A stretch of 59,033 nt of DNA from Raillietiella orientalis (taxonomy: Eukaryota). The stretch lies in NCBI GenBank assembly GCA_036172245.1, contig JAYWIR010000103.1, forward strand, positions 124,001 to 183,033, in the 5' to 3' direction. The position numbers were made by a program, and so were the translations under genes. The notes under the pieces were generated by a model that had not been told where the DNA came from, did not search any database, and was given only the letters and a program-made list of their open reading frames with translations. Of this stretch, positions 4,886-59,033 are shown one piece after another. The stretch's first letter is position 1. The number at the start of each line of letters is the position of its first letter.

Positions 4886-6129
4886 ATCAGGCATTGCTGC
4901 CTAATCCTCCACCCACACCACGCACAAGCACCAACGGAAATGGAACTCAGGAGCAACGAAAAGACACGTCCGCTCGACGCTCCGGAATCTCCAGGACTGG
5001 GACCTTTTTAAGGAATCGGTCCGCGAGTTCTGTGAGCAGTTCCCCCTGGATCGCCTGCCCCCCGGATTCGGCGAGGGTGCTCGCAACCATCGGGCCTATT
5101 TACAGGCTCGTAGGTACGAGAGAACCCCTAATGTCCGTCGCCTGGCCGAGTACCGCGCCGGGGCCGAACGCCAAGCCTGGCAATCCGGGTCGGCCAGCTT
5201 GCTGGACGACCAGGGCCGGGAATGTTCGTCCCCGGCGTCGGTACGGCATCTCGTGCGGAGTTTCTATTCCTCCCTTTACGCCAGGGAGCCCCCGGATCGA
5301 AACGCCTCTCGGCGCTTGCTTCCGGATGGCGCCCCGGCAATAAGGGAGGAGGAGATGGAAAGCCTCGACGAGCCTTTTACCACCGGCGAAATTCTCGCCG
5401 GTATCAAAAGGCTCAAGAAACGTAAAGCTCCAGGGGAAGACGGCTTGCCCGCGGAGTTCTTTCAGAGCTTCGCGGAAGAGCTGGCACCCCTGCTGCTTAA
5501 GTTGATCAGGCTGATCCGAGACGAAGGCGATGTTCCCGCCTCGTTTCGGTCAGCCAGAGTGAGGCTCCTTCCGAAAGGGGGAGACCTCAGGAATTTAAAG
5601 AACTGGCGTCCGATCACAATCGTGAATACGGACGCCAAGTTGATAGCAGGGCTATGGGCTTCGCGTCTGGGGCAGGTGGCAGAATCCGTAATTAGCCCGG
5701 AGCAGACTTATGCTGTTCCCGGTCGAAGTATGGATGCCAACCTCTTCTTCGCAAGCACATGGGTGCACCTGCAGAGAAGAGAAAAGAAAGGGATAGGGAA
5801 AGTCGGCAACCCAACATTGGGTCCGTTAGCCGGGCTGGGAAGGGACCCCCGAGCGGAGAAAGGGGCCCTAGCGCTCGCAGTCGATCTCCACAAGGCGTTG
5901 GATTTTCACCCGGATTTCGCCGGGGCGTTTATTGTAAAATAAACTTTTACAAAGACGTGCGGTGGCTGGACCATTGCTCCAGCCACGCACGAAGAAACAC
6001 AGAGCCTGCCGGGTCACCGGTTTGCAGACCGGTACGGTCCACCACGGCAGCAGGGGGAAGGGGGAAAAACAAAAAACAAAACAAAAAAGAAAAGAAAAGT
6101 TGGGAGGGTAAGGGAAGGGATCACAGTTG

Positions 6130-9100
6130 CTAGTGGGGCCGTTGCATCCTTTGTAGGATGGCGGCAAGCTCCTTCTGTATTTCTGGATCCAGGTGGGGCC
6201 ATCGGGACGCCCTCCTCAAAAACTGGGAGGCTGGCTGGATGGCACCCTGGTCGCGTAGTCCTCCCGTAGCCTTGCTCAAAGCGGTGACGTTCCCGCGTAG
6301 GCAGCACAAAGCTGCTAACGAGGCCGCTGGCCGACGGGCTTCGGGAACGAAGATGGCTTTCAGGGCGTCCCTGGGGTCGCAGCAGGGGATTCCGATGGCC
6401 GCGGCAAAGCGAAACCAAAGGGGCCGAAGGGCAACACAATCCACTAGCAGGTGGGGGAGGGACTCCCGTTCCCCACACCTGACGCAATTGGGGTCCACCG
6501 CTCCCCAGGTCCAGTGGTGTCGGCGGGCGTTGCAGGGGAGTCCCCAGTGCTGCAACAGGAGAGCCGACTCCTGCCATTTTAAGGGGAGGGCGGAAGTGTT
6601 CATGAGCACCGGGGGCCAATTCAGATGTTCAATGGGAACATCGAGCAGCGCGCCCCAGCGCAGAAGTCCATTGGGAGGCGTACTCGGGGTCGCAGCGTCT
6701 GTTAACTGGCCCGTCTTCCACTCTCCTATCTTCTCCTTTCCGGAGATTGTTACTGTAACCACCCACTTCGCCGCAACATCGCTGTCCAGATCTTCCATCA
6801 GGGAGGGCAGCGCAGCAGCGAGGGGGGTTCTTCCTGCCCACGCTCTCTTCTTTGGATCCTCCAGGATCTCGCGGAGCGTGCAACTTCTGTAACCCCCAAA
6901 CAGGAACCTTCGTTCCTGTTGGGAGCGTTGCATGCCGAACCGTCCCCACGTTCGAACGGTTTCCTGCAACCAGGCACTACCGTTAAACGGGCGACAGGTG
7001 AGCAATCCTGGGTTTTTCCGATACAGCGCAGCCACCCTCCGTAGCTGGAGTCCGCATCGGTTGACGCGGCGACGGAGTGCAAGAAACGACGTCAGTCCCG
7101 TCTTACCGGTGGCTTGCTGGAGAAGGAAACGTGCAGGGACGCACCAACAGGTGCACCACAACTCTGGAACGAGTGCCGACAAGCGGAACTGGAGCTGAAG
7201 CTCCAGCCGCTCCAGCGTCAGGAGGCCCAGACCACCATCCCGACGAGGAGCGCACAAGTCCTTTAAGCGGACTCGGGCCCTCCCGTTGCCCCAAAGGGCG
7301 ATACGGAGGAGGTCCTTTGTCCGCTTTTTAATCCTCTCTGTGGGGAAGCAAACTAAAAGCAGGGGGCGGAGGAGAGGAGCCGCGAACGTGTTCCAAACCG
7401 CGGCCCGTTCAGGCAGGAAAAACCTGCCGCCTCGGAACGGGCCGATCGCCGTCTCTACTTTTTGAAGGCAGCCGGACCACGCTTCCGCAGGGGAGTAGTC
7501 CCCCAACGGCACACGAAGGTACTTCAAATACCTCACCGTGGGGATCCCCAAACGGACCCAGTCCTGCTGCCATGTCCACGCCGCACAAAGTTGCATCACG
7601 GACGACTTCGTCCTGTTCACCGTAAGTCCGGTTCCCCGATGCAGCAGGTCGAAGAACTCCTCGACCGCCGTAGCCGGGGTGGACATAGGGAGCAGCAGCA
7701 GAAGGTCGTCCGCGTATGCTGAAACGGCCGGCGTACCGGCACAATCGTGCGGCAGGTGCGCCAGAGTTCCCCTGTACGCTCTCAGTACCAACTCAAAGTA
7801 GGTACTGAAGAGCAAGGGGCTCAGGCTGTCTCCCTGCCGGATCCCACGCCGCACCGGCACGCCGTGCACCGTCTGCCCGCTGAAAGCAACATTGATGAGC
7901 GCGTCGCGCCAGCAGGAGCGCAGATAGGTCACTAATGAGGCCGGGAAGCCCAAGCGTTCCAAAAGCTCCAGAAGGAGATTCTGGTCGACGCAATCGAATG
8001 CTTTCTGCAAGTCGATTGCGACCGTAAGGGCTCCCTCCCCCACCCGACCATCCAACCCCTTGCCGGCGCACGCACCGGAATTCCGGCTGCGCACCAAGCT
8101 CCTTTCATGTTGGAGCTCTAGCCAGGTGGAAGCGTGGAACAGGTTCGCCTCCATGCTTCGCCCGGGAACAGCATATGTCTGTTCCGGGCTGATGAAGATG
8201 TTGGCAACCCGTCCCAGACGCTCTGCCCAAACCTTGGCCACCAACTTGGCGTCCGCATTCACTATTGTGATGGGACGCCAGTTGTTCATGCTCCTCAGAT
8301 CTCCTCCCTTAGGGAGGAGCCGCACCTTTGCCGAACCAAACGAGGCGGGAACGTAACCTGTTTCTCGTATCAGCAAGGTGAATTGCTGTACCAGGGGGGT
8401 AAGCTCAGCCGCGAAAGTTTGAAAAAACTCCGCGGGCAGGCCGTCCTCCCCTGGAGTTTTTCGCCTCTTGAGCCTTCCGATGGCCGAGAGGATCTCGTCC
8501 ATCGTGAAAGGCTCGTCGAGGGTCTTGCTCTGCTCCTCCCCGATCGCTGGAGTGCCTTCCGGAAGCAGGAGTCGTGAGACGTTCCTCTCCGGAGGTGCCC
8601 TGGCATACAGGGAGGAGTAGTAACTCCGCAGCAGGCCGCGCATTTGGGCAGGTGCCGAGTGCTCCTGGCCCTGATCGTCCAGTAAGCTGGCCGATCCGGA
8701 CTGCCAGGCTTGCCTCAAGGCTCCCGCTTTGTATTCCGCCAGCCTGCGGATGTCGGGGGTCCTGGCGTAACGACAGGCCTGCAGGTAGGCTCGTTCGTTA
8801 CGGACCCCGGTCCCAAAACCCGTAGGTAGGCGGTGCAGAGGAAACTGGTCGCAGAACTCCTGGACCGACCGCTTGAAGCGGTCCCAATCCTGGAGTGTCC
8901 GCAGCCTGAAGCTCCGTATGAACTTGCGGAGATGTTCCGCCGCGTCCGGGAGCTTCAGCCAGTCCCCTGGGAGACGCCACGCTGACGAGGGGGGACCCCT
9001 GTCGCGCGGATGGATCTCGAGGACTAGCGGGCGATGGTCGGACAGCTCGCACGGTAACCTGCCGCGGCTGCCCACGCGAGGGCACAGGTGCTCGTCAAGA

Positions 9101-9699
9101 AACACGTGGTCAATGCTGTCTTCCATCCCCGGTGCACTGGCCAACAGATTACAGGTGTGCACCGCCATGCACACCTCGTTGACCAGGTCACGCTCGGGAT
9201 TCTGCTCATCTGGTTTCAGGCGAACGTTGAAATCGCCTGCAACCAGATGGGCATTCCACACGCCTGCTTCGGTCAGCCAGTCTCGCCGGAGGGCAAGGAA
9301 AAACTCTTTCCTCGCCCTCCTGTTCATCAGGTCCTTGCCGCTCGGTGCGTACACGTTCGTGACGATCAGATCGATCGAGTCGGACCACCTGAGAGTCAGC
9401 TGGCCGACACGACCGTGATCGTCGAACCGCACGCCCCGAGCCGCGGCCTCGACGGCTGGCCAAAGCAGGTAGGCGACACCGCAACTTTTCGCTCTCCCAC
9501 ACCTGTACCATAGCCGCCCTCCGGAGATCCGTTCGATCTCTTGCGCTTGTTCTGCAGAGATCACGTGGATCTCCTGCAGCAGCGCAAGGTCGTAGGACTC
9601 CAGAAGGGCAAATATGTCTCGTCTCCTGCCGGCGTCTGTCATGCCGTTCACGTTCCAAACGGCGATGCGCAGACGACGGCAGGAGGAGATTCCCGGCAT
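6130..9699 (-). CDS. Open ORF2 of B1, 1189 aa: APE endonuclease, reverse transcriptase, C-terminal zinc finger
   Basis: EN motifs WNVNG, LQE, NVYAP, GDFN, IDHVF, SDH. RT motifs PGEDG, NWRPI, DLQKAFD, RQGDSLSP, YADD. Finger CVRCGERESLPHLLVDC. YLG is changed to YLR. Confidence 0.96.
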   Translation of the reverse strand: MPGISSCRRLRIAVWNVNGMTDAGRRRDIFALLESYDLALLQEIHVISAEQAQEIERISGGRLWYRCGRAKSCGVAYLLWPAVEAAARGVRFDDHGRVGQLTLRWSDSIDLIVTNVYAPSGKDLMNRRARKEFFLALRRDWLTEAGVWNAHLVAGDFNVRLKPDEQNPERDLVNEVCMAVHTCNLLASAPGMEDSIDHVFLDEHLCPRVGSRGRLPCELSDHRPLVLEIHPRDRGPPSSAWRLPGDWLKLPDAAEHLRKFIRSFRLRTLQDWDRFKRSVQEFCDQFPLHRLPTGFGTGVRNERAYLQACRYARTPDIRRLAEYKAGALRQAWQSGSASLLDDQGQEHSAPAQMRGLLRSYYSSLYARAPPERNVSRLLLPEGTPAIGEEQSKTLDEPFTMDEILSAIGRLKRRKTPGEDGLPAEFFQTFAAELTPLVQQFTLLIRETGYVPASFGSAKVRLLPKGGDLRSMNNWRPITIVNADAKLVAKVWAERLGRVANIFISPEQTYAVPGRSMEANLFHASTWLELQHERSLVRSRNSGACAGKGLDGRVGEGALTVAIDLQKAFDCVDQNLLLELLERLGFPASLVTYLRSCWRDALINVAFSGQTVHGVPVRRGIRQGDSLSPLLFSTYFELVLRAYRGTLAHLPHDCAGTPAVSAYADDLLLLLPMSTPATAVEEFFDLLHRGTGLTVNRTKSSVMQLCAAWTWQQDWVRLGIPTVRYLKYLRVPLGDYSPAEAWSGCLQKVETAIGPFRGGRFFLPERAAVWNTFAAPLLRPLLLVCFPTERIKKRTKDLLRIALWGNGRARVRLKDLCAPRRDGGLGLLTLERLELQLQFRLSALVPELWCTCWCVPARFLLQQATGKTGLTSFLALRRRVNRCGLQLRRVAALYRKNPGLLTCRPFNGSAWLQETVRTWGRFGMQRSQQERRFLFGGYRSCTLREILEDPKKRAWAGRTPLAAALPSLMEDLDSDVAAKWVVTVTISGKEKIGEWKTGQLTDAATPSTPPNGLLRWGALLDVPIEHLNWPPVLMNTSALPLKWQESALLLQHWGLPCNARRHHWTWGAVDPNCVRCGERESLPHLLVDCVALRPLWFRFAAAIGIPCCDPRDALKAIFVPEARRPAASLAALCCLRGNVTALSKATGGLRDQGAIQPASQFLRRASRWPHLDPEIQKELAAILQRMQRPH

Positions 9700-9713
9700 T
9701 ACTGCTGGGAAGA

Positions 9714-11375
9714 TTAAGGTGTGGGGGAGCCCTCCTCTTGCGAGGCGGGCGGGATGTCCATGGGGGTTTCGGCCTTCTCAGGCACCTGAGGCACCTGTTC
9801 GGCCTCCACCCCCTCCATCCCCTCCGTGTCCGTGCGTGGGAGTCTCTCGGGCGACGGGTCCCGAGAGTTTCCCACGCTCATGGCACCCTCGCTTGCGGAA
9901 GCCATCTCTTCCCCTTCGACGGGGGAGACGAGCTTCCTTGGCTTTGTGGACTTACGTCCAGCCTTCTTGCGCGGTGCCGTAGAAACGGAGGCTGCGGTTC
10001 CGGCCTCCACCTCGGGGTCGGAAGTGGGGAACATCTGAGGGGAGGCCGGACGCCTTACGGCCTTCTTGCCAGCCTTGGAGGGTTCTGGCTGCAAAGAGGC
10101 TGCCAGCTCCTCCGCGGCTCGCGCGAAGGCTACGTCATCGATGGTGGTGTCGATAACGGACGCCGCCGCCGGTTCGCTCCCCTCGCTGTTGTCTGTGTCA
10201 ACAGAGGGGAGTTCGTCGGTAGCGGCGAGTTCGTTCCGGCAGCGTTCGGCAACATCGAGAACGCGTTCGACAACGACGCTGCACTCTTTAATTATGGCGC
10301 GACCCTGCTCTTTCTTCTTCTATTGGTAGGCGATTTTCTTTTCCATCCTCCTCTCCTTCTTTGATTTTTTGGCTGTTGCCACTTGCCACTCAGTCTCCTG
10401 GCCGGCTCCCTCAACTTTTTCCGCGTTGGTCGCCGGGGTCACGGGTGCGGCCTGGGTCTTGGGCGCGGGTGGCACAGCCTTCGCGGCAGCTTTCGCCTCC
10501 AGTCTTTTCTGCAGAAGCCGGGCGCGTTTTTTAAGGTTTCTCTTGGAAACCACCCGCACTGCTGCTTTTGGGCACACCTCCCTCGTGTGGCCCATTGTGC
10601 CGCATACTTGGCACTGCACATTGGGACACCTCTTTTTGAGGTGGCCCGACGTATTGCAGAAGCCACAGTATTTCGGCTTCCCCCCATACCAGAGGTCGAC
10701 GGTTTCGCCTTCGACCACCAGTTTGTGGGGAAGAGTGCAGCCCTCCCGAACGGTCACGCGCGCAGCAGTGAGGCCGTGTTGCAGCCCCGTGTAGTCCTCG
10801 AAAGGACTAACTTTCGTCCACTGCGCGTGGACCGTTCCAAACTGTTCCAAAGCGGCGCGAACCTGTTCTTTGCGCATTCGCGCGGTCACGCCTAACAGGT
10901 GGACCACCATGCTGCGGTCCGCCGTATTGGGGAGAAGCCTGCGCGTCCCCATCACAACGGTGGTTTTAAGCAGTCGTTGGGCCAGCTCTGCATGTTTGCA
11001 GATGACCTCAACGTACTGACCCCCGCTGCGGAAGGTCATAGCGCTGAGCTCCTCCTCTTTCACATCGAGAGCGCGCATGCCCTTCGAGAAGGCGCGCGCG
11101 CTCTCTAAAGAATATAAATTGCCTACCTTGTAGAACAATGAGGGGTTGTACCCCTCCTCTACATAGGCCGACAATTCCGCCGCGGCTGCAGGCGATGGCG
11201 CCGACACACCGGCGCTTCACGCCCGCGCTGCAGCAGGGACCGATCCTGTGGGGGCGCATGCCCCCACCTCCATCTCCTCCGGGGGCGACGTTGCTGCCGC
11301 CCCCTGGCTCTCCATCGCCTCTGGGGGCGGCGTTGCCGCTGCCCCCTGGCCATTCCTGGTGCTCGCGTCAGGCAT
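9714..11375 (-). pseudogene. ORF1 of B1 (CCHC knuckles) with two in-frame nonsense codons
   Basis: Collinear with the intact B2 ORF1. TGG>TGA at ~11217 and a TAG at ~10320. Knuckles CGFCNTSGHLKKRC and CQVCGTMGHTREVC. Confidence 0.9.
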
Positions 11376-13449
11376 TGCTGCCTGATCGACCACCGAACCA
11401 CACGACGCTTCCACTGGGAGAGACTTCCTGGCACGAGGAGCACCGAGAAAACACGTCCACCCTAGAGCGCACAAGGCGTTCGACTGTGTAGCCCAGAAAC
11501 TTCTCTTGGAGCTCCTGGGTCGCATGAGCTTTCCACCCTCCCTGATCAACTACCTGCGCTCCTGCTGGCGCCATGCCATAATTTCCGTCTTTTTCAGCAG
11601 TCAGAAGGTGCATGGCGTACCGGTGCGGCGGGGCATCAGGCAGGGAGATAGCCTGAGTCCCCTGCTCTTCAGCACCTACTTTGAGTTGGTGCAGACTTCT
11701 TCGAGCTGCTCAGCCGTGGGACCGGACTGCAGGTCAACAGGGCGAAGTCGTCGGTGGTGCCAGTAGGTGCGGCGTGGGCAGGGCAGCAGGACTGGGTCCG
11801 TCTGGGGATCCCCACGGCGAGGTGCTTCAAGTACCTTGGTGTGCCGTTGGGGGACTACTCCCCTGCGGAAGCGTGGTCCAGCTGCCTCCAAAAAATCGAG
11901 ACGGCGATCGGCCCGTTCCTGGAAGGCAAGTTTCACTTGCCGGAACGGGCCGCGGTTTGGAACGCCTTCGCGGCCCCCATCCTCCGCCCCTTGCTTTTTG
12001 TTTGCTTCGCCCCCGTGGAATCAAAAAAGCGGACTAAGGACCTTCTCCGCATAGCTCTTTGGGGCAAGGGGAGGCCCCGAGTCCCACTGAAGGACTTGTG
12101 CGCTCCGCGTCGGGACGGCGGTCTTGGCCTCCTGACGCTGGAGCGCGTGGAGAAGCAGCTGCGGTGGCGAACCCTCGCCATCGCAGCGAAGATGTGGAGC
12201 ACCCCTTGGTGCACTCCGGCCCGCCTCCTGGCCAGCCGTGTGTCCCGGTGCGATGGACTCGCTTCTTTTCTTCTGAGCCGTGGCCGGAAGATGCGAAGAT
12301 GCGGCCTACTGCTCGGGCGCATGGCAACATTGGCCAAGGAGAACAGCTGGATGGTTTGCTGCCCCGCCAACTCCCCCGCCTGGCTGGAGGAGAATATTGG
12401 AACGTGGGCAGTAGTTAACCAGAGAAGCCACGAGACGTGGAATCGTCTCCGATGCAGCCCCTACGCCCGCTGCACGCTGCGGAATCTCCTGGAGAGTCCA
12501 GCAAGATGCACGTGGGCAGAGACGACCTGCCTAGCTACGGCGCTGCACTTCCTAAGGAGGGCACTTCACCGCACTCGGACGCCAAGGTGGCAAGTCTCCT
12601 GCTGCATCGAGGGACGCGAGAAGTTGATCAGCGGCTGGATAACAGGAGAACTGGCCGACGCCACGACCCCGAGGGTCCAGCCGCGAGGATTATTAAGATG
12701 GGGCGAGCTGCTCGCCATCCCCAGGGATGAGCTGAAGTGGCCCCCGGTAATAAAGGAATCCAGGATCCTGCCCCTCAAGTGGCAAGATTCGGCGTTGGTT
12801 TTGTTGCACTGGGGTCTACCCTGCAACGCGCGCCGCTTCTACTGGACGAGGGGAGCTGTGGATCCTGCGTGTGCCATGTGGGGGGAGCGGGAGTCGCTTC
12901 CCCACCTTATTGTGGATTGTGCTGCCCTCCGACCCCTTTGGGAACGGTTCGGGACGACCCTCGGGCTCCCTACGGGCAGCAACCCCAGAGACGTTCTTCG
13001 GCCCCTCCTCGTGAAGGACGCACTGCAGCCAGCCGCAGCCATCGCAGCCTTGTGCTGCGTCTGTGGCTTCGTGGGGGCATGGAGCGACGCCAACAACGAA
13101 GGAGTGGGTCCACAGGCGAGGGATGTCATCCCGTATGCCAAACGCTTCTTGCGAAGAGCTGCCGGATGGCGCCAACTGGGGAATATGCAGACTGACCTCG
13201 AGGGCTTCGTTCGACGGATGGGCCCTCCCCACAGCGACCAGTGATCCCTTCCCTGCCCTCCAGCTTCTTTTTGTTTGTTTCTTTTTATTTTACTTTTTGT
13301 CTTATCCCCATCCCCCTTCGCTGTCGGGGAGTGCCACGCCGGGCTGCGTCCCGGTGTCCCGACAGGTCCTGTGTTTACGGCCGTGGTGGGGCCTTGTACC
13401 ACGCATGGAAAGTTTATTAATAAACGCCCCGGGCGTACCCGGGTGATAA

Positions 13450-16183
13450 CGCCGATTCCCCGGAACAGACGTTGCACAGGGAACTGTTTGCAGAACTCCC
13501 GGACCGAGTCCTTAAATTGGTCCAAATCCGCGAGACTCTGGAGGCTGACGCCTCGCAGGAATTCGCGAAGATGTTCTTTCGCTCCTGACAGGCGCGTCCA
13601 GTCCCCTGGCATACGCCAATCCCTGGATGGCGGTCCCTTGTTGCGCGGGCGCATCTCGAAAACTAACCGGGAATGGTCCGACAGCGTCGATCCAAGTGTC
13701 CCTCGTTTTCCGACCCGTGTGCACAGGTCTTCGTCGAGGAAGACGTGGTCCACGCTGCTGACCATCCCGCTTATTTCTGTCAACAAGTTGCGCGCGCGCA
13801 TGGCGGCGCACAACTCGTTGATCGCGTTACCCTGTGCTCCGGGCTGATCTGAGAGCAGACCGACGTTGAAATCCCCTGCTATCAGATGCGCCTTTCGCAC
13901 GTCCGCGTCCACCAGCCATTCGCGCTTCAAGGTTTCCAGTAACGCGTTGCGCTGCTGGTATCCCTGTTTACCGCTAGGAGCGTACACATTGGTGACGATG
14001 AGGTCGATCGAATCGGACCATCTGAGAATCAGTTGGCCGATCCGTCCGTCGTCCCCAAAGCGCACTCACTTCACGGCCGCGTTAATGGCTGGCTTTAGGA
14101 AGAACGCGACCCCACAAGTGTTGCGGGCGCCGCATCGCCAGTACAACCGCCCTCCCGCAATCGTTTCGATCTCCTGGGCGTCTTTTGCGGTGATCACGTG
14201 GATCTCCTGCAAAAGTACCAGGTCGAAATCTCGCAAGGTGGCGGCTGTATCTCGTCTGTTTCCGTCGTCGCGCAGCCCGTTAACATTCCAACTGGCCGCG
14301 CGGATCCGACGGCGACAGGCGAGTCCAGGTGTTATTCCTGGGAACCTGGCGGTGGAGCTCCCGCCACCTTTTGGGGCGGGTCGCTGGACGGGGTTGGCGT
14401 CTTGCCCACCAACTCCCCATCCTTCTTTCGTGCCGACGTCTCCGGCTGCCCGTGCGAAGGGGGTGTTGTTCGTACCTGTTGGCCCACATCCATTGGTGCG
14501 GGTGGTTCAGGTTCGGCGGTTTCAGAGAGCATTGCTGACCCCTGGTTACCCTCCTCCATTGGAGTCGCCTCCTCGTCGGCTTCCGCACGTGGGTGATGCC
14601 CGACTTGGGCTCCCACGCTGCCATCCACTGGTTCTTCCACCATTGCATCCCCCTCGCGCGGAGGCGGAATGCACCTTCGGGGTTTCTGGGATTTTCGCCC
14701 CGCTTTCCTTGGTGGTGCTTCCGCAGAGGAGGATGCACTTCCGGCCTCCCGGTCCGACTCACCTGCGGGGGCCACTTTAGCCGCTGCCGGCCTACGCAAC
14801 CCCTTTCGCGAAGGGTTCTCGCGTTCGGCAAGCGTTGCCGCAAGCTCCTCGGCGGCCTTCTCGAAGGCTGCCTCCTTGGTTTCGGCGATTTTGTCGTCCG
14901 GCTGACCCTCTTCGCAAACGGGGGGTGGGTTTTCGCGCGCATTCTTCGCGGCAGGAAGATCGATCGAAGCCGTATTGCCTCCGGTGGTGTCGGCGGGAAC
15001 GTCAATGCGCTACAGCGTAACCGTGCATTCTCGGAGAGTTTCTACGCGCGACACGGATTGAGCTTTTGTTCCGGCCGCCGCCTTCTCTCCTTTCTTCGGG
15101 ACATGCTTGTCCTTTTTTTCTTTTTTGGCTTTGACTAGCTGCCAGCCCTGTTCACCCTCTGCGGTTTCGGGAAGGTTTTTCTCCGATGCCGCGCTTGGAG
15201 CTTGGGTTATTGGCACCTTTTCTCGGCCAGTTTCACGGTTTTCTAATTTTTCTTTTCCCGCGCGTTTCGCTTGCGCCTTTTTGGCGGCCGAGGAAATTGG
15301 GGTGGGGCGTTTAGGGCACACGCGACGGACGTGTCCCTTCTCCCCGCACAAGTAGCATACGATGTTCGGGCACCTCTTACGGATGTGTCCGACCGCATCG
15401 CAGTAGCCGCAATACCGTGGCTTGCCAGCATACCAGAGGTCTACTGGTTCTCCCGCGACCTCAAGTTTGTGGGGTAGCTTCGCTTCGTTTTTTGGGGTTA
15501 CGCGTGCCGCAGGAGGCCCCGAAGTGGCGTCCGTAGCCCTCAAAGATTGTGGGCTTCGGCCACAGCGCGTGTACGTCCCCGTACTTACTTAATTCTGCTT
15601 TTACGGCAGTGCGCGTCATGCGCTTGGATATTCCTGTCAAGTGGACCACTACCGAGTGGTCCATTGACACCGGGAAGATCTTACGGCCGTCCATGATCAG
15701 CGGGGTATTTATAAGGCGATCGGCTAGGCTGATGCTCTTGCACACCAGCTCAACCCGCTGCGCCCCGCTGAGCACGCACAGACCGTCCAGATCTTCCTCA
15801 CGGACATTAGCATTTTGTAGCGCTCTGCTGAAAGAGCGCGCTGTGTTTCCTTCAAACAAAGGGCCTACCTTGTATACAAGCGATGGCTTGTATTCAGAGG
15901 ACCGATAGGCGGCTTCCTCGGCCATGGCCTCCGCACTGGGGGCGGCGACCATTTCACTCCAAGTCTTCGCCGGCTGCGAAGACGTTCCAGGGACTATTGC
16001 CCCCATAGATGTAGGTCCTGTGGTAGGACTTGCCTCCCCCACAACCACATCCATCGCGGTGTCCTCTGGCACGGCTGCCATCGGACACCGACGACCCACA
16101 CTTAACACCTGACTACACTAAAAAAACTCCGGTTGCTTCCCAGACAGGCGTTGGCGGAGCGACCAAAAGACACGTCCACCCAC
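13450..16183 (-). mobile_element. Non-LTR retrotransposon C, 5' half (frameshifted ORF1 16081-14332; EN domain 14332-13450); inserted antisense into F
   Basis: 5' end gtgggtGGACGTGTCTTTTGG. Knuckles CGYCDAVGHIRKRC and CYLCGEKGHVRRVC. EN motifs WNVNG, NVYAP, GDFN, SDH. Cut by the 3' end of D at RLFRGIG. Confidence 0.9.
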
Positions 16184-32220: not shown

Positions 32221-32221
32221 C

Positions 32222-32940: not shown

Positions 32941-32959
32941 CATCTGCCAAACCATCGTC

Positions 32960-48749: not shown

Positions 48750-49620
48750 ATCAGTGATGAACATTCCCCATAAGATGGACGGCCGGAAGGTATTCCCTGT
48801 GACGTTGGACAATTCCTTGATTGTGCACCTCACAGGTTCACTCTTCGGATGGGACGCACCGCCGTCCACGAAGAGCGGAAGAGGCATGGTACCGTGCACG
48901 CGATGTGGACGAAACCCGATGTTTTCTGGAGCAACAACATATTTTTCAGCGGGATGGCTGCAGCGCGTGTCACAGTACACGAAAACGGTGAGCTTCCGCA
49001 CAAACCAGACTTCAGCAACGAAAACGATGACGTCTGGTACGTGAATAAGCCCAAGTACTGCGGGCATTGCGATGCCACCGAGCACCTTTAGCAGGGGTGC
49101 CTGCATGTCAAATGCCACCACTGAGGCGAAAAAGGCCACCTTAAAAAGATGTGCCCAAAACGCGCATCTCCGATGCCCCCTGCAGCGAAAAAAGCGCAGG
49201 CAAAACGGGCGGGAGAACTAGAAAGATAAAATGCAAAGAAGACTGGGCGAAAGCAGCAGCCGGTCCTTCAAGCTCCCAAGGAACTTCAGAGAAAGAAATC
49301 TCCGACTAAACGGGAGAGCAGAAGGAGGAATGGTGTAACACAAAAAAGTTAAGAATTCTTCGAAAGAAAAAACGCTTCCGAAAGAGGAGAAAACTGCGAC
49401 AGACGAACATAAAAAATAGAAGCCGCGCCTCGAAAAACTCGCAGAATGTCCGATTGCCTTTCAAACCGTGGAGACAAACGTTACCGCTACGAGGGGAGGA
49501 ATCATCCCTCTCGCTTCCGTCAAAGCTGCGGTCCCCGAAAACGAATCATCTGTTCAAACAGGGGGTGAGCCACTGGACGCGCTCGGCGAAATCGAGGACA
49601 TCGAATTCGAGCAGGCGACG
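48750..49620 (+). pseudogene. Decayed C-like ORF1 (element M), outermost host of the right-hand nest
   Basis: MDGRKVFPVTLDNSLIVHLTG; AARVTVHENGELPHK; WYVNKPKYCGHCDATEH; IEFEQAT at the junction. Confidence 0.85.
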
Positions 49621-51669
49621 TTGCCACACGGATACGCCGGGACGTTTATTCAAACTCTCCGCATCGTCACGAAAACATGTGGTACAAGGCTCTACTAACA
49701 GCAAATATTTAGCACGACCTGCCGGGACACCGGGACGCAAACGCGTGTGACTCTACTTTGCAGTAAAAGGAGTAAGGAGAAAACGCACAAAAAAATATAA
49801 CAAACAAAATAAAGAAAAAAAGTTTATAGGTTCGAGAAGAGATCACTGACCACTAAGAGGAGGGTCCATCCTTTGCAGGATGCCCTCGAGGTCTTTCTTT
49901 TTTCCACCCAGCTGGGGCCATCCGGTAGCTCTGTGAAGGTAGCGAACAGCATACGGGATGACGTCCCTCTCGTTGGCGTCTTCATCTTTGGCTTCACTCC
50001 AGGCCGTTACAATTCCACGGATGCAGCAAAGTGCTGCCAGGGCTGCGGCTGGCTGCAGGGCGTCTTGCACGAAAGGAAGGCGGTAAACGTCTCTGGGGTT
50101 GCCGCCAGCCGGTATCCCAAGGGTCGTCCCGAAACATTCCCAGAGGGGCCGGAGGGCAGGACTGTCCACTATCAGGTAAGAGAAGCGCTCTTCCTCCACG
50201 GACCTGGCACACCCAGGGATTACTCTTCTCCTCGTCCAGTGAAAGCAGAGGACGTTGCAAAGTAGATCACAATGCAACAACAGGAGCGCGGACTCTTGCC
50301 ACTTGTGGGGGACGATCCTGGAACCATTCAATAGCAGGGTAACTTCAGTCATCCATCGCGATGCCAAGCAGCTCGCCCCATCTACAAAGTCCACGCGGAA
50401 GGAAACTCGCGGTAGTGGCATCCGCAGTTCTTCCATAGTCCACAAGCTTATCTTCTTCTCCCTGCTCCGATCCGATAGGAGACTTGAAACTTTATCGCCA
50501 GCGTCTGACGGGAGCTATCCATAGGAAGGGAAGCTCCGGAGCTCAAGGAGTGGTCTCTGCCGAAGTGCGACTGGCAGAAAATGCTGGCAGTTCCAGTAAT
50601 TACCTCCATAGTAATTCAGATTCGCCCACGTGATAACGGATTCCTCCAGCCAGGCGGAAGAGTAGGCGCGCTGCAAACCATCCAGCCGTTGTATTTCAGC
50701 GTTTCCATGCTTCCAGAGAGAAGACCACATCTTCTCATCTTCCGGACGTGGCACAGAAGATAAGGCGAAACTCCCTGCGTCCTGGAAACACGGTTGTCCA
50801 GAAATCGGGCCAAAACGTACCATAGGGTGCTTCAAAACTTCGCTGAGATGGCCAAGGTGCGCCGTCGCAGTAGCATCTCCAAGCGCTCCAACGTCAGGAG
50901 GCCAAGACCTCTGTCCCGACGCGGAGAGCACAAGTCCTTCAGAGACACACTAGGCCACCCGCTGTCCCAGCGGGCGATGCAGAGTATGTCCTTAGTCCTC
51001 TTCTTCAACTGGCAAACAAAAGCAGGGAACCGAGAATAAAGGCCGCGAACGGGTTCTAAACCGAGTCCCGTTACGGAAGAAGGAATTTGCCTTCCAGGAA
51101 GGGGCCGATCTCCAGCTCTCCTTTTTCGAGACTACCTGACCAGGCTTCTGCGAGACAGAAGCCACCCAACGGGAGGCCCAGGTATTCCAGGTACCTGGAC
51201 GTGGAAATCACAAGCGGAACCAGTCAGACCGTCGGAAGCACGTCGCACCAACCACTACCACCAACGACTTCGCCTTGTTCACCCGCAGTCCTGTTCCACG
51301 GCTTAGCAGAACGAACATGTCCGCGACAGCGCATGCATGGGCAGACATGGTCAACATCAGCAGAAGATCGTCAGCGTAATCTGCTACGGCGGGCGCACCG
51401 GGGCACGAGCTCGGCAAGGCAGCCAAAGTCACCCTGTATGCTCTTAGCATCGACTCAAAGTAGGCGCTGAAGAGCAGGGGACTGAGGCTATCACCATACC
51501 GTATGGACCGCCGCTCCACCAGGCCGTACGTGGTTTGTCCGCTGAAGGAGACGGTAAATATTGCATGGCGCCAGCAGGAGCGCAGCTATGTGATAAAGAT
51601 GTGTGGGATGACCATGCCACCTAGGACCTCCAGCAGGAGATCGTCGTCCACGCAGTCGAACGCCTTGCG
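49621..51669 (-). mobile_element. Decayed retrotransposon K (D-like), from RT KAFDC to 3' end; antisense in M and host of B2
   Basis: RKAFDCVDDDLL, RYGDSLSP, YADD, ...LQRMDPPLSGQ. 3' end AATAAACGTCCCGGCGTATCCGTGTGGCAA. Confidence 0.9.
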
Positions 51670-51690
51670 TGCTCCAGGGTGGACGTGTTT
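51652..51690 (+). promoter_or_regulatory. Putative composite Inr + DPE core promoter of B2 (equivalents at A1 4998/4971, B1 11485/11458, C 16204/16177, A2 57859/57886)
   Basis: gcAgtc (A at 51654, in host K) and GGACGTG starting at 51681, which is +28, the canonical Inr-DPE spacing. Confidence 0.65.
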
Positions 51691-54600
51691 TCTCGGTGCT
51701 CCTCGTGCCAGGAAGTCTCCCCCAGTGCAAGCGTCGTGAAGTTCGGTGGTCGATCAGGCAGCGATGCCTGACGCGACCACCAGGGATGGCCAGAAGGCAG
51801 CGGCAAGGCCGCCCCCAGAGGCAATAGAGAGCCAGGGGGCGGCGGCAACGTCGCCCCCAGAGGCGATGGAGGTGGGGGCATCCGCCCCCACAGAATCGGT
51901 CCCCGCTGCAGCGCGGGCGTGGAGCGCAGTTGTGTCGGCGCCATCGCCTGCAGCCACGGCGGAATTGTCGGCCTATGTAGAGGAGGGGTACAACCCCTCA
52001 TTGTTCTACAAGGTAGGCAATTTATATTCTTTAGAGAGCGCGCGCGCCTTCTCCAAGGGTATGCGCGCTCTCGATGTAAAAGAGGAGGAGCTCAGCGCTA
52101 TGACCATCCGCAGCGGGGGTCAGTACGTTGAGGTCATCTGCAAACAAGCAGAGCTGGCCCAACGACTGCTTGAAATGCCCGTGGTCATGGGGACGCGCAG
52201 GCTCCTCCCTATTACGGCGGACCGCAGCATGGTCGTCCACCTGTTAGGTGTTACCGCGCGGATGCGCAAGGAACAGGTTCGCGCCGCGTTGGAGGAATAC
52301 GGAACAGTCCACGCGCAGTGGACGAAAGTTAGTTCTTTCGAGGACTACACGGGGCTGCAGCACGGCCTCACTGCTGCGCGCGTGACCGTTCGGGAGGGCT
52401 GCACTGTTCCCCACAAACTGGTGGTCGAAGGCGAAACCGTCGACCTCTGGTATGTAGGGAAGCCGAAATACTGTGGCTTCTGCAATACGTCGGGCCACCT
52501 CAAAAACAGGTGTCCTAATGTGCAGTGCCAAGTATGCGGAACCATGGGACACATCAAAGAGGTGTGCCCTAAAGCAGCAGTGCGGGTGGTTTCCAAGAGA
52601 AACCTTAGAAAACGCGCCCGGCTTCTGCAGAAAAGGCTGGCGGCGAAAGCTGCCGCGAAGGCTGTGCCACCCGAGCCTAAGGCCCAGACCGCACCCGAGA
52701 CCCCGACGAACAACGCCCAACAAGTCGAGGGAACAAGCCAGGAGCCTGGGTGGCAGGTGGTTACGGCCAAAAAATCAAAGAAGGAGAGGAGGATGGAGAA
52801 AAAGCCCGCGTACCGCCAGAAAAAACAGCAGGCAAGAGAGCATATAAAAGAATGCAGCGTTGTCGTCAAGCGTACTCCCGATCGCTGCGAAAAAGAACTC
52901 GCCGCGACCGACGACAACCCCTCTGTTGACTCTGTCAAGAGCGAGGGGAGCGAGCCGGCGGCGGCGTCCGTCATCGACACCACCATCGATGGCGTAGCCT
53001 TCGCGCGAGCCGGGGAGGAGCTGGCAGCCTCGTTGCAGCCAGAACCCTCTAAGGCTGGCAAGAAGGCCGTAAAGCGTCCGGCCTCCCCTCAGGAGTCACC
53101 CACTTCCGACCCCGAGATGGAGGCCGGAAGCGCAGCCTCCGTTTCCACAGCACCGCGCAAGAAGGCTGGACGTAAGTCCACAAAGCCAAGGAAGCTCGTC
53201 TCCCCCGACGAAGGGGAAGAGATGGCTTCCGCAAGCGAAGGTGCCATGAGCGTGGGAAACTCTCGGGACCCGTCGCCCGAGAGACTCCCACGCACGGGCA
53301 CGGAGGGGATGGAGGGGGTGGAGGACGAACAGGTGCCTCAGGTGCCTGAGAAGGCCGAAACCCCCATGGACATCCCGCCCGCCTCGCAAGAGACGGGCTC
53401 CCCCACACCTTAATCTTCCCAGCAGTAATGCCGGGAATCTCCTCCTGCCGTCGTCTGCCCATCGCCGTTTGGAACGTGAACGGCATGACAGACACCGGCA
53501 GGAGACGAGACATGGCCGCCCTTCTGGAGTCCTACGACCTTGCGCTGCTGCAGGAGATCCACGTGATCTCTGGAGTACAAGCGCAAGAGATCGAACGGAT
53601 CTCCGGAGGGCGGCTATGGTACAGGTGTGGGAGAGCGAAAAGTTGCGGTGTCGCCTACCTGCTTCGGCCAGCCTTCAAAGCCGCGGCTCGGGGCGTGCGG
53701 TTCGACGATCACGGTCGTGTCGGCCAGCTGACTCTCAGGTGGTCCGACTCGATCGATCTGATCGTCACGAACGTGTACGCTCCGAGCGGCGCGAACCTGA
53801 TGACCAGGAGTGCGAGGAAAGAGTTTTTCGTTGCCCTTCGGCGAGACTGGCTGACCGAAGCAGGCGTGCGGAATGCCTACCTGGTTGCAGGCGATTTCAA
53901 AGTTCGCCTGAAACCAGAAGGGTAGAATCCCGAGCGTGACCTGGTCAACGAAATGTGCATGGCGGTGCACACCTGGAATTTGTTGGCCAGTGCACTGGGG
54001 ATGGAAGACAGCATTGAGCACGTGTTTCTTGACCAGCACCTGTGCCCTCGCGAGGGCAGGCGCGGCAAGTTACCGTGCGAGCTGTCCGACCATCGCCCGC
54101 TAGTCATCGAGATCCATCCGCGCAACAGGGGCCCCCCTCGTCAGCGTGTCGTCTCCCAGGGAACTGGCTGAAGCTCCCGGACGCGGCGGAACATCTCCGC
54201 ACGTTCATACGGAGCTTCAGGCTGCGGACACTCCAGGATTGGGACCGCTTCAAGCGTTCGGTCCAGGAGTTCTGCGACCAGTTTCCTCTGCACCGCCTAC
54301 CTACGGGTTTTGGGACTGGGGTCCGTAACGAACGAGCCTACCTGTAGGCCCGTCGTTACGCCAGGACCTCCGACATCCGTAGGCTGGCGGATTACAAAGC
54401 GGGAGCCTAGAGGCAAGCCTGGCAGTCCGGACTGGCCAGTTTGCGGGACGATCAGGACCAAGAGCACTCGGCACCCGCCCAAATCCGCGGCCTGCTGCGG
54501 AGTTACTACTTCTCCCTGTATGCCAGGGCACCTCCAGAGAGGAACGTCTCACGTCTCCTGCTTGCGGAAGGCTCTCCAGCGATCGGGGAGGAGCAGAGAA

Positions 54601-54888
54601 AGACCCTCGACGAGCCTTTCACGATGGACGAGATCCTCTCGGCCATCGGAAAGTTGAAGAGTCTCCAGGCTCCAGGGGAGGACGGCCTGCCCGCGGAGTT
54701 TTACCAAACTTTTGCGTCTAAACTTACCCCCCTGGTACAGCAAATCAGCTTGCTGATACGCGAAACAGGTGACGTTCCCGCCTCGTTTCCTTCGGCAAAG
54801 GTGCGACTCCTCCCTCAGGGAGGAGACCTGAGGAGCATGAACAACTGGCGTCCCATGACAATAGTGAATGCGGACGCCAAGTTGCTGG
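51670..54888 (+). mobile_element. Retrotransposon B2, 5' part (ORF2 53428-54888 with stops and frameshifts), interrupted by L
   Basis: Closely similar to B1 through the 5' UTR, ORF1 and EN. Ends at NADAKLL. Confidence 0.94.
51764..53413 (+). CDS. Intact ORF1 of B2 (two CCHC knuckles)
   Basis: MPDATTRD...; CGFCNTSGHLKNRC and CQVCGTMGHIKEVC; uninterrupted frame. Confidence 0.92.
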   Translation: MPDATTRDGQKAAARPPPEAIESQGAAATSPPEAMEVGASAPTESVPAAARAWSAVVSAPSPAATAELSAYVEEGYNPSLFYKVGNLYSLESARAFSKGMRALDVKEEELSAMTIRSGGQYVEVICKQAELAQRLLEMPVVMGTRRLLPITADRSMVVHLLGVTARMRKEQVRAALEEYGTVHAQWTKVSSFEDYTGLQHGLTAARVTVREGCTVPHKLVVEGETVDLWYVGKPKYCGFCNTSGHLKNRCPNVQCQVCGTMGHIKEVCPKAAVRVVSKRNLRKRARLLQKRLAAKAAAKAVPPEPKAQTAPETPTNNAQQVEGTSQEPGWQVVTAKKSKKERRMEKKPAYRQKKQQAREHIKECSVVVKRTPDRCEKELAATDDNPSVDSVKSEGSEPAAASVIDTTIDGVAFARAGEELAASLQPEPSKAGKKAVKRPASPQESPTSDPEMEAGSAASVSTAPRKKAGRKSTKPRKLVSPDEGEEMASASEGAMSVGNSRDPSPERLPRTGTEGMEGVEDEQVPQVPEKAETPMDIPPASQETGSPTP

Positions 54889-57880
54889 TTGCCACCCGGT
54901 AACGCCGGGGCGTTTATTAAAAATTCTCTATGATTCGTGGTACGAAGCCCCACTACGGCCAACTCAGCTGGACCTGCCTGGTCGCCGGTACGCTGACCGG
55001 CGCGACTCTCCTCGGCAGCGGAAGGGGGTGGGAGAAAAAAAAAAAAGAAAAATAAAACATAAAAACAAAAAGATTCTGGAGGGTTGGGGAGGGATCACTG
55101 ACCACTCGGAGGAGGGTCCATCCTTCGCAGGATGCCCTCGAGGTCCGTCCGTATAATTCCCAGGTGGGGCCATCTGGTCACAATCCGCAGGTAGCGGACT
55201 GAAAGTACAACGGCATCCCTGTCGTGGCTCGGTCTTCTGACGTTGCTCCAGCACGTAAGAATCCCGCGTACGCAGCTAAGTGCAGCCAGAGTAGCGGCTG
55301 GACGCAGGGCATCATGCACGAACAGAACCCGTAAAACGTCTCTGGGCTGGCTGCCCTCCTGGATCCGTATGGAGGCACGAAGAAGTTCCCACAGGGGTCG
55401 GAGGGCAGCACGATCAACAAGGAGGTGGGGGAGCGTTTCCCGTTCCCCAAACCTGATGCAGGTAGGATCTACTCGACCCCTGGTCCAGTGGTGGCGGCGT
55501 GCGTTGCATGGTAGGCCCCAATGCAACAACAGAAGCGCCGACTCCTGCCACTTCAGGGGTAGGATCCTAGAACCAATTAATACCGGGGGCCACTTTAGGT
55601 CATCCGGCTGGATGCCGAGTAGCTCACCCCATCTCTGAAGTCCTCTCGGCTGGACACTAGGGGTACTGGCGTCCGCCAGTTCACCCGTGGACAAGACGCT
55701 GATCAACTTCTCCTTGCCTGCGATGCGGCAGGAGACTTGCCACCTACTCTTGCGGGTGCTGGAGAGCGCCCTCCTCAGGAAGGGCCTCGCCGTAGCTACG
55801 GGGGTTTCTCTGCCCACGTGCTTCTCGCGGGACACTGGAGTATCTTCCGCAGAGTGCAGCGAAAATAGGCGCCGCGTCCCAGGCAGTTCCACATCTCCCC
55901 GTTCTTCTGGTTTATCTTCGCCCACGTGCCAGCTGTTTCCTCCAGCCATGCGGAGGAGTTGGCGGGGCTGCATACCATCCAGCCGTATTTCTTAGCCAGA
56001 GTTGCCATTCGTCCCAGGAGAAGTCCGCATCTCTTGATCTTCCTGCGACGGCACAGAAGATAGGACGCGAGACCCTCCGTCCCGGATACACGGCTGGCAA
56101 GGAGTCGGGCCGGAACGCACCAAGGGGTGCTCCATAACTTCGCTGCGATGGCGAGGGTTCGGAAGCGCAGCTGAATCTTTACTCGCTCCATCGTGAAGAG
56201 GCCGAGACCGCCATCCCGACGTGGAGCACACAAGTCCTTCAACGGGACTCGGGGCCTCCCTCTTCCCCAAAGGGCAATTCTCAGGAGGTCCTTCGTCCGT
56301 TTTTTCAACTCTCTGGGGACCGAACAAACAAAAGCTGGGGGCGGAGGATAGAAGCCGCGAACGCGTTCCATACCGCGGCCCGTTCCGGAAGGAGAAACTT
56401 GTCTTCCATGAACGGGCCGATCGCCGTTTCCACTTTTTGGAGGCAGCCGGACCACGCTTCCGCAGGGGAGTAGTCCCCCAACGGCACAGCAAGGTACTTC
56501 AAGCACCTCGCCGTGCGGATCCCCAAGCGGACCCAGTCCTGCTGCCCTGTCCACGTCGCTCCAACTGGCAACACTGACGACTTCGCCCTGTTAACCTGTA
56601 ATCCAACCCCACGGTTAAGCAGGTGGAACAAATCTCCGACCGTCTTCGCCGGGGTGAACATAGGTAAGAGGAGCAGAAGATCGTCGGCATACGCCGCTAC
56701 GGCTGGCGTGCCGGGGCACGAGCTCGGCAAGGGGGCCAAAGTCACCCTGTACGCTCTCAGCACCAACTCAAAGTAGGTGCTAAAGAGCAGGGGACTGAGG
56801 CTGTCGCCCTGCCGTATGCCCCGCCGTACCGGCACGCCGTACGCCATTTGACCTCTGATTGAGATATTGATCAGCGCGCTGCGCCAGCAAGAGCGCAGGT
56901 GGGTCAGTAGGAAGGGAGGGAAGCCCATGCGTCCCAGGAGATCAAGCAGGAGATCCTGGTCCACGCAGTCAAACGCTTTATGCAGATCGACTGCGATCGC
57001 TAGGGCTCCCTTACCCACCTGGGAGTCCTGTCCCTGCCCGGCTGACGCCCCCAAAGCGGGGCTGCCAATCCTTCTCTCTTCCTTTTCTTCATTACTCTGC
57101 ACATGAAACCATGTGCTCGCGAAGAACAGGTTGGCCTCCATACTTCGCCCGGGAACAGCGTAAGTCTGCTCCGGGCTAATTATGGAATTGGCTACCTGTC
57201 CCAGACGCGAAGCCCACAGTCCGTCGATCAACTTGGCGTCCGTGTTCACAATTGTGATCGGACGGCAGTTGCTGAGTTTCCTGAGGTCTCCTCCTTTCGG
57301 AAGGAGCCTCACTCTGGCTGACCGAAACGAGGCGGGTACATTGCCTTCATCTCGGATCAGCCTTGTCAACTCAAGCACCAGGGGTGCCAACTCTGCCGCG
57401 AAGCATTGAAAAAACTCCGCAGGCAGGCCGTCCTCCCCTAATGCTTTCCGCCTCTTGAGCCTACTGATACCGGCGAGAATTTCGCCGGTGGTAAAAGGCT
57501 CGTCGAGGCTTTCTTTCTCCTCCTCCTATTGCCGGGGCACCGTTCGGAAGCAACCGCCGAGAGGCATCTTGGTCCGGGGGCGCCCTGGCGTAAAGGGAGG
57601 AATAATAACGCCGCAGGAGGTTCCGTATTCTAGCCAAGGCCGAGTGCTCCCGGCCCTATCGTCCAGCAAGCTGGCCGATCCGGATTGCCAGGCTTGACGT
57701 TTGGCCCCGGCTCGGTACTCTGCCAGGCGACGGACATTGGGGGTCCTCGCGTAACGACGGGCATACAAGTACGCTCGTTAATTACGGATCCCATCTCCAA
57801 ATCCCCGGGGCAGGAGGTGCAAGGGGAACTCCTCGCAAAACTCGCGGACCGAGGCCCCAGTCAGCGTGATTGCAGAGCGT
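54889..57880 (-). mobile_element. Retrotransposon L (D/G-like), linker-RT-zinc finger-3' UTR, frameshifted; antisense in B2 and host of A2
   Basis: DLHKAFD, RQGDSLSP and YADD in ORF 56305-57390. C-terminus ...RMDPPPSGQ at 55095. 3' end AATAAACGCCCCGGCGTTACCGGGTGGCAA. Confidence 0.92.
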
Positions 57881-59033
57881 CGAGCGGACGTGTCTTTTCG
57901 TTGCTCCTGAGTTTCATTTCCGTTGGTGCTTGTGCTTGGTGTGGGTGGAGGATTAGGCAGCAATGCCTGATACCACCACCGGTGAGGATCCGGGGGCGAT
58001 GACCTCATTGCCCCCGGAGCAGATGGAGGTGGGAGCTCCCGCATCAGTGGAGGCTCCCGCCAGCACAGATGCGCCCCCGGCCCTACCCAGGGCTTGGAAC
58101 GCCGTGGCTGCGGCACCTACGCCAGCGGCTATGGCGGAAATGAGCGCTTACCTGGAGGAGGGGTATAATTCACCCCTTCTATATAAGGTAGGCGGTTTAT
58201 ATTCTCCCGAGAACGCGCGCGGCTTTCCGCAGGCGATGCGCGTTCTCGGTGTACAAAAAGAGGAGCTTCTGGCTATGTCCGTCGGAAGCGGGGGTCAATT
58301 CGTGGAAGTTATCTGCAAGGAGGCAACTCTTGCGCAGAGACTTCTGCGAACCCCCGTAATTATGGGCAGCCGGAGGCTTCTCCCCATTACTGAAGACCGG
58401 TCGGTGATCATTCACCTGACCGGTATCACGTTCCGGATGACGAAGAAGGCCGCACGGAACGAATTAGAAAAATTTGCAACTGTCAACGCGCTGTGTGGAA
58501 AGCCCACTCCTTTTGTCGATTACGACGGGGTGCTTGGCGGCTTGGGTGCAGCGCGAGTGACGGTTCGCGAGGGATGTGAGTTTCCCCACAAACTCACCGT
58601 CAACGTTGAATCCGTTGACGTGTGGTACGTGGGGAAACCCAAGTTTTGCGGCTGCTGCAGCAGCTTCGGTCACCTTAAAATGAGGTGTCCGAGCGTGCAG
58701 TGCCAGCATTGCAAACAAGCGGGCACACCCGTCTGGTGTGCCCCCATAACACCTTCCGCGTCGTGTCCGCGAAAAACGCGAGAAAGCGAGCGGCAAAAAA
58801 GAGTAAGTAGCTGGCAGCTCGTGCTGCTGCTAAGAAGATCACATCCGCCACCAAGGCGAAGGTCAGCCCCGAGACCCCGGCGAAAAACGCCGAAAAGATC
58901 GAGGGCGAGGGTCAAGAGCCAGGGTGGCAGAAGGTCGATCCCAAGAAAAACTCCCATAAGAAGGGAAAGAACGTGGCGAAACGGAGCGAAACCGCTCTGC
59001 GCCGCGAAAAAATTAAAAGCTGCTGCGTCGTTG
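57881..59033 (+). mobile_element. Retrotransposon A2, 5' UTR and ORF1 (ATG 57963, frameshift ~58720), runs off the window
   Basis: Near-identical to the reverse complement of A1 4976-3830. Confidence 0.94.

Follow-up and report, generated by a model that had tools for sequence, protein, structure and literature searches.

We report here that, in a nest of related retrotransposons of Raillietiella orientalis, a conserved box near the 5' end of the antisense-inserted elements stands at a constant distance, exact to the nucleotide, from a C-A step in the DNA into which they have inserted. The DNA in question is one stretch of 59,033 nt (GCA_036172245.1, contig JAYWIR010000103.1, positions 124,001 to 183,033 of the forward strand; hereafter the window), and all inference rests on the six full-length 5' ends that lie within it. 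The elements are retrotransposons without long terminal repeats (non-LTR elements), or long interspersed nuclear elements (LINEs), with two open reading frames (ORF1 and ORF2). Copies A1, A2, B1, B2 and C of three families are inserted antisense to a relative, copies E and F lie in a further element D, and H1 to H4 denote the relatives that serve as hosts. At all five antisense 5' junctions an A preceded by a C lies exactly at -27 (27 nt upstream) relative to the first G of the box, GGACGTGTYTT, and comparison of copies in diverged hosts shows that families A and B each home to one fixed nucleotide on the antisense strand of their relatives' ORF2. It is tentatively proposed that the box is a downstream core promoter element, or DPE, and that the target supplies the missing initiator (Inr).

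The box was recovered with GGACGTGTYTTT, which, at one mismatch or fewer, has six matches in the window against 0.52 expected, a number reached in none of 100 shuffles. Five matches mark the antisense junctions (first bases 4971, 11458 and 16177 on the minus strand, 51681 and 57886 on the plus strand), and the sixth, GGATGTGTTTTT at 21243 on the plus strand, heads the sense-inserted copy E. The full-length copies all begin 6-11 nt upstream of the conserved block, GGAYGTGTYTT, which is the only strongly conserved 5' block of elements whose 5' untranslated region (UTR) measures only about 100 nt. Homology to the host ends at -12 in both B copies, which leaves a leader of 11 nt; it ends between -12 and -9 in family A and between about -12 and -8 in C. 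An earlier note on this DNA, made from the letters alone, had placed the element starts 5-12 nt upstream of the motif, which holds as an approximation, the host homology ending between -12 and about -8.

The same note had claimed that three different targets give a single spacing, and on this point it proved accurate. The A at -27 with its preceding C is found in 5/5 antisense junctions, which represent three target sites, and the hexamers are exactly those noted: ccAgtc in A1 and A2, acAgtc in B1, gcAgtc in B2 and tcAcgc in C. The codons had likewise been assigned correctly, the site of A being the antisense of GAC-TGG (D-W of LQDWD) and that of B the antisense of GAC-TGY (D-C of KAFDC); at the C site the CA lies opposite the TG of a GTG codon, the V of G-V-R-N. 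At E, the sole sense junction, there is a T at -27, so that CA is absent (1/1). The 11-nt leaders of A, B and C have nothing in common except a G at -4, which is equivalent to +24, whereas the box and the flank columns -30, -28, -27 and -24 are common to the junctions. The conservation thus sits at the positions of the would-be Inr and DPE and not at the first base of the element, and the 11 nt between target and box fit a spacer better than a start site.

A and B are each represented twice and C once; counted by target site, the independent sample is three and not five. CA makes up 6-7% of dinucleotides; the chance that three antisense-ORF2 sites drawn at random all have it at a preset offset is 3.4e-4, or 1.0e-2 when the shared offset may be any of 34. 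The corresponding figure for CAGTY, CAGTY and CA at one preset offset is about 3e-7, and for four shared columns within 7 nt, as at -30, -28, -27 and -24, it is 1.1e-2. There are 29 RGWCGTG sites in the window on both strands, and CA occupies -28/-27 in 5/5 of those at element 5' ends and in 1/24 of the others. The single match away from a junction (49713-49719 on the minus strand, GGTCGTG with the hexamer ACACGC, in the 3' UTR of H3) is probably due to chance, because 1/24 is about the background rate. The CA signal at -27 is real beyond chance, and it is the cause of the signal that is debated below.

An alternative is that the junctions are not separate insertions at all, one ancestral junction having been spread by segmental duplication, or the junctions being head-to-head joints left by twin priming, with the spacing inherited or accidental. 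The layout of the window is indeed mirror-like, with minus-strand A1 and B1 towards its left end and plus-strand B2 and A2 towards its right end. However, the flanks are more diverged than the elements. The bodies of A1 and A2 are 96.0% identical over 1150 nt and their flanks 82.5% over 900 nt, with only 77.7% identity and an 11-nt indel in the nearest 200 nt of flank; for the B1-B2 pair the body identity is 92.7% and the flank identity 74.9%. A1 and A2, and B1 and B2, are therefore separate insertions in each case. Moreover, the KAFDC site is uninterrupted in H2 and filled by B1 in H1, and B1 is bounded at either end by host sequence with a copy of a duplication. A1 overlaps H1 in ORF2 coordinates and belongs to another family, so the two are not halves of one RNA. 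Twin priming, or inversion of one RNA, was considered for the pairs C with H4 and A with H1 and was rejected, the overlaps differing in sequence and A1 spanning the region that H1 covers. The divergence of flanks against bodies largely refutes duplication and twin priming, and we regard either origin as highly improbable. Use of the same nucleotide of the target by A (2/2 copies) and B (2/2 copies) in diverged hosts bears out the target specificity claimed earlier; C is present in one copy.

Beyond the exact sites of A and B, the window has a hot region, in which five antisense insertions from four families fall within about 100 nt of one ORF2 linker (amino acids (aa) ~297-333, between the endonuclease and the reverse transcriptase). 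The B family itself carries GAT-TGG in its own ORF2 at the position of the A site and is without the CAGTC found in the H-family hosts of A, which makes it possible that B is immune to insertion of A.

Copy B1 is the only one with both ends visible and gives the geometry of the junction. Its target-site duplication (TSD) is 15-16 bp long (5889-5904 against 11470-11485, matching at 14/16), and the frame of H1 is duplicated across the element, reading HKALD to its left and HKAFDC to its right. The -27 A lies at the outer edge of the upstream TSD copy, or 1 nt from it, and the distance of 27 is thus the sum of the duplication (about 16) and the 11-nt leader. When integration proceeds by target-primed reverse transcription, the first-strand nick falls at this outer edge. 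The junctions of A and C appear compatible with the duplication and leader geometry of B1, and direct evidence for a nick at the -27 A comes from B1 only. The 3' junctions of H1 and F were tried as markers of the C nick and rejected, the nick of F lying 6 nt away and that of H1 depending on a 2-codon gap. The two copies of the B1 duplication differ in that the 5' copy has the family consensus TTC-GAC, like the flank of B2 at 51654-51669, and the 3' copy has TTG-GAT. This difference would be weakly consistent with an origin of the 5' copy from RNA, and it is also compatible with two later mutations.

It is proposed that the box acts as a DPE-type downstream core promoter element in elements that have no initiator of their own. 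TFIID would set RNA polymerase II (Pol II) 27 nt upstream, at the C-1/A+1 step lying across the outer border of the upstream copy of the duplication; the initiator would be the C-A step in the ORF2 of a rival LINE, and the promoter would be whole only at the cognate site. The RNA would then start with the 16-nt target copy, and the complement of this copy in the cDNA would pair with the 16-nt overhang that the staggered cut leaves in the next homologous target, its end meeting the first nick exactly. Annealing at that point would give a seamless junction, in which the 16 nt would read as host sequence. The DPE consensus is RGWYVT, A+1 has to precede its first base by exactly 27 nt, and a shift of the Inr-DPE spacing by one nucleotide costs several-fold activity, as given in PMC5580651. 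In 5/5 antisense copies the GGACGT of the box matches in full both RGWYVT and the older RGWCGTG, and the GGATGT of E also fits RGWYVT; these are fly consensus sequences and may not be those of the host. C-1/A+1 has the required spacing in all five copies, and the reading of the box as a putative DPE in the earlier note is supported by the full match to the fly consensus. Measured against the fly Inr TCAKTY, which again may not be that of the host, the A and B junctions agree at 5/6 positions (CAGTC, the base at -2 not being T). A motif ten element, CSARCSSAACGS, was also looked for in the leaders; that of A fits it at 8/12 positions and that of B at 4/12, and it was rejected as not general.

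Several observations weigh against this proposal. As a fly Inr the hexamer of C, TCACGC, is weak, agreeing at 3/6 positions (TCA only). In B1 the -27 A is also the position of the first-strand nick, and the shared C.CA..C can be accounted for by the specificity of the endonuclease alone. Copy E, the only full-length copy away from a cognate site, reads T at -27, and its host sequence continues to -7, so that a 16-nt extension derived from a target is absent. In the 16 nt upstream of the leader, 6/16 positions differ between A1 and A2, although their bodies are 96% alike; these 16 nt are thus derived from the host and not carried along, and the model holds only with the annealing step. The roughly 20 nt of target that the earlier note expected at the RNA 5' end are visible at neither place. 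To our knowledge no DPE has been reported for the L1-like clade, no search for such a report having been made, and there are only three independent sites. On balance, that the box is a true DPE, with Pol II starting in the duplicated target and the promoter complete only at the cognate site, seems to us nearly as probable as its converse, judging from the arrangement of the letters. The wider proposition, that the promoter is split between element and homing site and that the 27-nt geometry couples expression, homing and seamless 5' joining, is put forward with somewhat more reserve.

The most serious competitor places the start of transcription inside the element, at or near its first nucleotide, with the box following about 11 nt downstream. 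The box would then be a positioning site, comparable to the YY1 site at about +13 that positions the start in human L1, and C.CA..C would be the nick motif of related apurinic endonucleases (APE), the figure of 27 being a stagger of ~16 bp plus an 11-nt leader. The duplication of B1 puts the first-strand nick at the -27 A or 1 nt from it, and the shared columns -30, -28, -27 and -24 straddle a nick of the B1 type; the APE endonucleases of site-specific LINEs are described as reading a span of about 10-12 bp around the nick (PMC7265360). A and B, which both have CAGTC, are more alike than any other pair of families (about 71-75% ORF2 identity), the ends of copies within a family are exact, and E begins at its non-cognate site within a few nt of the expected leader start. 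Nevertheless, a nick motif with an internal start needs three coincidences, namely a box that equals the DPE consensus, a nick motif that is Inr-like and a distance that is exactly that between Inr and DPE, and their joint chance is well below 1e-4. The first bases of the leader are not conserved between families, and no CA is seen at the duplication edge in other insertions (F, GT/CCCC; H2, GG/CC). The TSD lengths vary from 12 in F and about 7-10 in E to 15-16 in B1, so that a fixed 27 is no general mechanical constant. We therefore hold an internal start to be rather unlikely. Far less likely still is that the elements have no promoter of their own and are transcribed by read-through from the host, the 5' end being made by cleavage, for example by a ribozyme like that of hepatitis delta virus (HDV), such as stands at the 5' end of R2 or L1Tc. 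The very short 5' UTR would suit such co-transcription, and R2-like site-specific LINEs are described as depending on transcription of the flank (PMC4494074). This leaves the CA at -27 unexplained, however, and no Rfam ribozyme was found in the whole window at gathering thresholds or, at E up to 10, in the 5' regions of A2 and B2. The predicted folds of the 5' regions also do not stand out from those of shuffled sequence (z between -1.5 and +0.2), and a ribozyme or structured 5' end was accordingly rejected.

The coordinates of the junctions, elements and hosts are collected in the following table. The element map was drawn from stop-to-stop ORFs and from tblastn searches with one intact ORF2 and two intact ORF1s.

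Features of the nested LINEs in the window (positions are those of the window; box, the DPE-like box; TSD, target-site duplication)
Feature	Positions	Strand	Details
A1, element	1-4982	minus	ORF1 3236-4900 intact (554 aa); ORF2 with frame break, exits window
A1, 5' junction	4960-4999	minus	C-A 4999/4998; putative target copy 4998-4983
A1, leader	4982-4972	minus	host homology may reach 4980
A1, box	4971-4960	minus	
H1, host	4983-13449	plus	ORF2 from about aa 297 to 3' end; split by B1; left end capped by 5' end of A1; 3' end antisense within C; reads LRNLQDWD across 4983-5003
B1, complete element	5905-11469	minus	ORF2 6130-9777 intact (1215 aa; APE, RT, zf-RVT); ORF1 broken; 3' end with AATAAA, GC hairpin, short A tail
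B1, 5' junction	11447-11486	minus	C-A 11486/11485; TSD 5' copy 11485-11470; leader 11469-11459; box 11458-11447
B1, TSD 3' copy	5889-5904	minus	H1 codons H-K-A-L-D plus T
C, element	13450-16188	minus	5' end to ORF2 aa ~326; cut by 3' end of H1
C, 5' junction	16166-16205	minus	C-A 16205/16204; short leader; box 16177-16166; H4 sequence (codons A/P-F-C-E-G-V) up to about 16189-16186
H4, host	16189-19165	plus	ORF2 aa ~316 to 3' end; host of C
E, 5' end	21236-21254	plus	sense in host D; leader 6-7 nt; box GGATGTGTTTTT
F, 5'-truncated copy	29332-30040	minus	body 29344-30028; antisense in D at G-F-G codons; perfect 12-nt TSD, 29332-29343 and 30029-30040
H3, host	49621-51669	minus	ORF2 aa ~590 to 3' end; host of B2
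B2, element	51670-54888	plus	5' end to ORF2 aa ~513; cut by 3' end of H2
B2, 5' junction	51653-51692	plus	C-A 51653/51654; target copy 51654-51669; leader 51670-51680; box 51681-51692
H2, host	54889-57874	minus	ORF2 aa ~304 to 3' end; host of A2
A2, element	57875-59033	plus	5' UTR and ORF1; exits window
A2, 5' junction	57858-57897	plus	C-A 57858/57859; target copy 57859-57874; leader 57875-57885; box 57886-57897
Hot-region insertions	13450; 16189-16204; 29332-29343		H1 in C; C in H4; F in D
Hot-region insertions of A	4983-4998; 57859-57874		A in H1 and H2
GAT-TGG in B ORF2	8881-8895	minus	
GAT-TGG in B ORF2	54231-54245	plus	
Visible 3' ends	5905-5933; 29344-29374; 49621-49650; 54889-54918	minus	
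Visible 3' ends	13419-13449; 19135-19165; 28896-28926	plus	
Start-codon hairpin	57951-57972; 51753-51770	plus	homologous positions in A1, B1 and C

By their domain make-up the elements are L1/Tx1-like LINEs, with an ORF1 of a putative CCHC type and an ORF2 comprising APE, reverse transcriptase (RT) and candidate zf-RVT domains. The intact ORF2 (1215 aa) matches the Pfam families Exo_endo_phos (7e-9, the APE domain) and RVT_1 (4e-21); its zf-RVT match is weak, the E value of 1.3e-3 failing the Pfam cutoff. Its best solved relative is human L1 ORF2p (5e-45, against 2e-13 for R2), and the jockey-type label used in the earlier note therefore gives way to an L1/Tx1-like one. Database relatives of ORF2 were 22-25% identical in a first search, and an exhaustive search returned one fragment of 71% and otherwise sequences of at most 35% identity. 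In the translation of ORF1 (~555 aa) two CX2CX4HX4C knuckles can be read, and this protein gave no Pfam match and no homologue in a word-based database search. AATAAA is present in all of the visible 3' ends (7/7), together with an inverted repeat rich in GC (CCCCGG..CCGGG), TGR and an A tail of 2-5 nt, an arrangement that looks like a recognition hairpin of the stringent type with almost no poly(A). The folds predicted for every family include a small conserved hairpin (CAGGCAGC-AUG-CCUG), the loop of which holds the ORF1 start codon. A scan of metagenomes for extra copies with a degenerate form of the box yielded two loci, both of them unrelated chance matches on seemingly prokaryotic contigs.

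The nest is about 60% G+C and flanks an AT-rich stretch at 31-49.6 kb (33-47% G+C). Among the ten insertions whose hosts are readable (H3 was left out of this count, its host not being verified), 8/10 are antisense, the exceptions being E and H4. About 7-10 nt are duplicated at E, where the codons of host D run to -7. Copy E also contains a direct repeat of 300 nt (25045-25344 and 27602-27901, 92% identical and 2.5 kb apart), which is either an internal duplication or a further nested fragment. For CpG the observed/expected ratio stands at 0.92-1.03 in the elements, against 0.75 in the AT-rich host part; transitions of the CpG type account for 6/46 and 28/232 of mismatches (12-13%). Together these figures indicate that the host has no CpG decay of the vertebrate kind, a point that speaks against a vertebrate and counts in favor of the split promoter. 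Within the AT-rich island, 31000-49600, a 584-aa open frame runs at 41994-43748 on the minus strand; no Pfam family and, in a word-based search, no homologue was found for it, and eight other ORFs of the island gave no Pfam match.

If the split-promoter proposal is correct, these elements would be a clear case of a core promoter that is assembled only by integration, and a copy would be live only where it has landed on the reverse-transcriptase gene of a rival. It would tie together the nick site of the endonuclease, the joining of the 5' end and the survival of the promoter through retrotransposition, and short 5' transductions would be expected in off-target copies. Setting the promoter aside, LINE families here home with nucleotide precision to the antisense of conserved ORF2 codons of their relatives, and such self-targeted nesting inactivates competitors and spares host genes.

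Site-specific retroelements that need their target for transcription are already known, as is the homing of the Tx1 clade into transposons; no report of a core promoter shared out between the DPE of an element and the Inr of its target, the target being a coding site in a rival LINE, was found in the part of the open-access literature that was searched. The Drosophila LINEs jockey, Doc, G, I and F resemble the present elements in their short 5' UTR, their RGWCGTG-type box and an A+1 at -27. Their initiator consists of their own first bases, however, whereas +1 to +16 would be target DNA here, and their ORF2 is jockey/I-like instead of L1/Tx1-like. TRAS1 and SART1 of Bombyx are, like the present families, site-specific APE-type LINEs, and both are listed with a DPE-type motif in PMC4748587; their endonuclease is described as recognizing some 10-12 bp about the nick (PMC7265360). 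They belong to the R1 clade and target a simple telomeric repeat, in contrast to the coding site of another LINE that is used here. Takahashi and Fujiwara reportedly mapped, in 1999, the transcription starts of TRAS1 to telomeric repeats lying immediately upstream of it, which would be the nearest precedent for a start in target DNA. For R2 and R1 expression is tied to the target, as is proposed here, and according to PMC4494074 transcription of R2 and of the flank-driven SINEU depends on target or flank, and target-derived RNA ends are thought to help precise integration (PMC4494074, citing Eickbush and Fujimoto). R2 relies on read-through by RNA polymerase I and on a ribozyme, whereas none was found by the Rfam scans of the present elements. 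The Tx1 clade offers a likeness in domain make-up and homing: an L1-like ORF2 with a C-terminal zinc motif, an ORF1 in which CCHC knuckles can be read and homing into a repeat or transposon, Tx1 into the piggyBac element Tx1D and Keno into U2 genes (PMC4494074), whereas the targets here are antisense codons of the elements' own relatives. HeT-A, finally, shares with our proposal a promoter obtained from a neighboring retrotransposon copy, the upstream one 'promoting in tandem' (PMC4700185). There the whole promoter resides in the 3' UTR of the upstream copy in a head-to-tail array, whereas here only the initiator would be contributed by the neighbor, in a nesting that is head-to-head.

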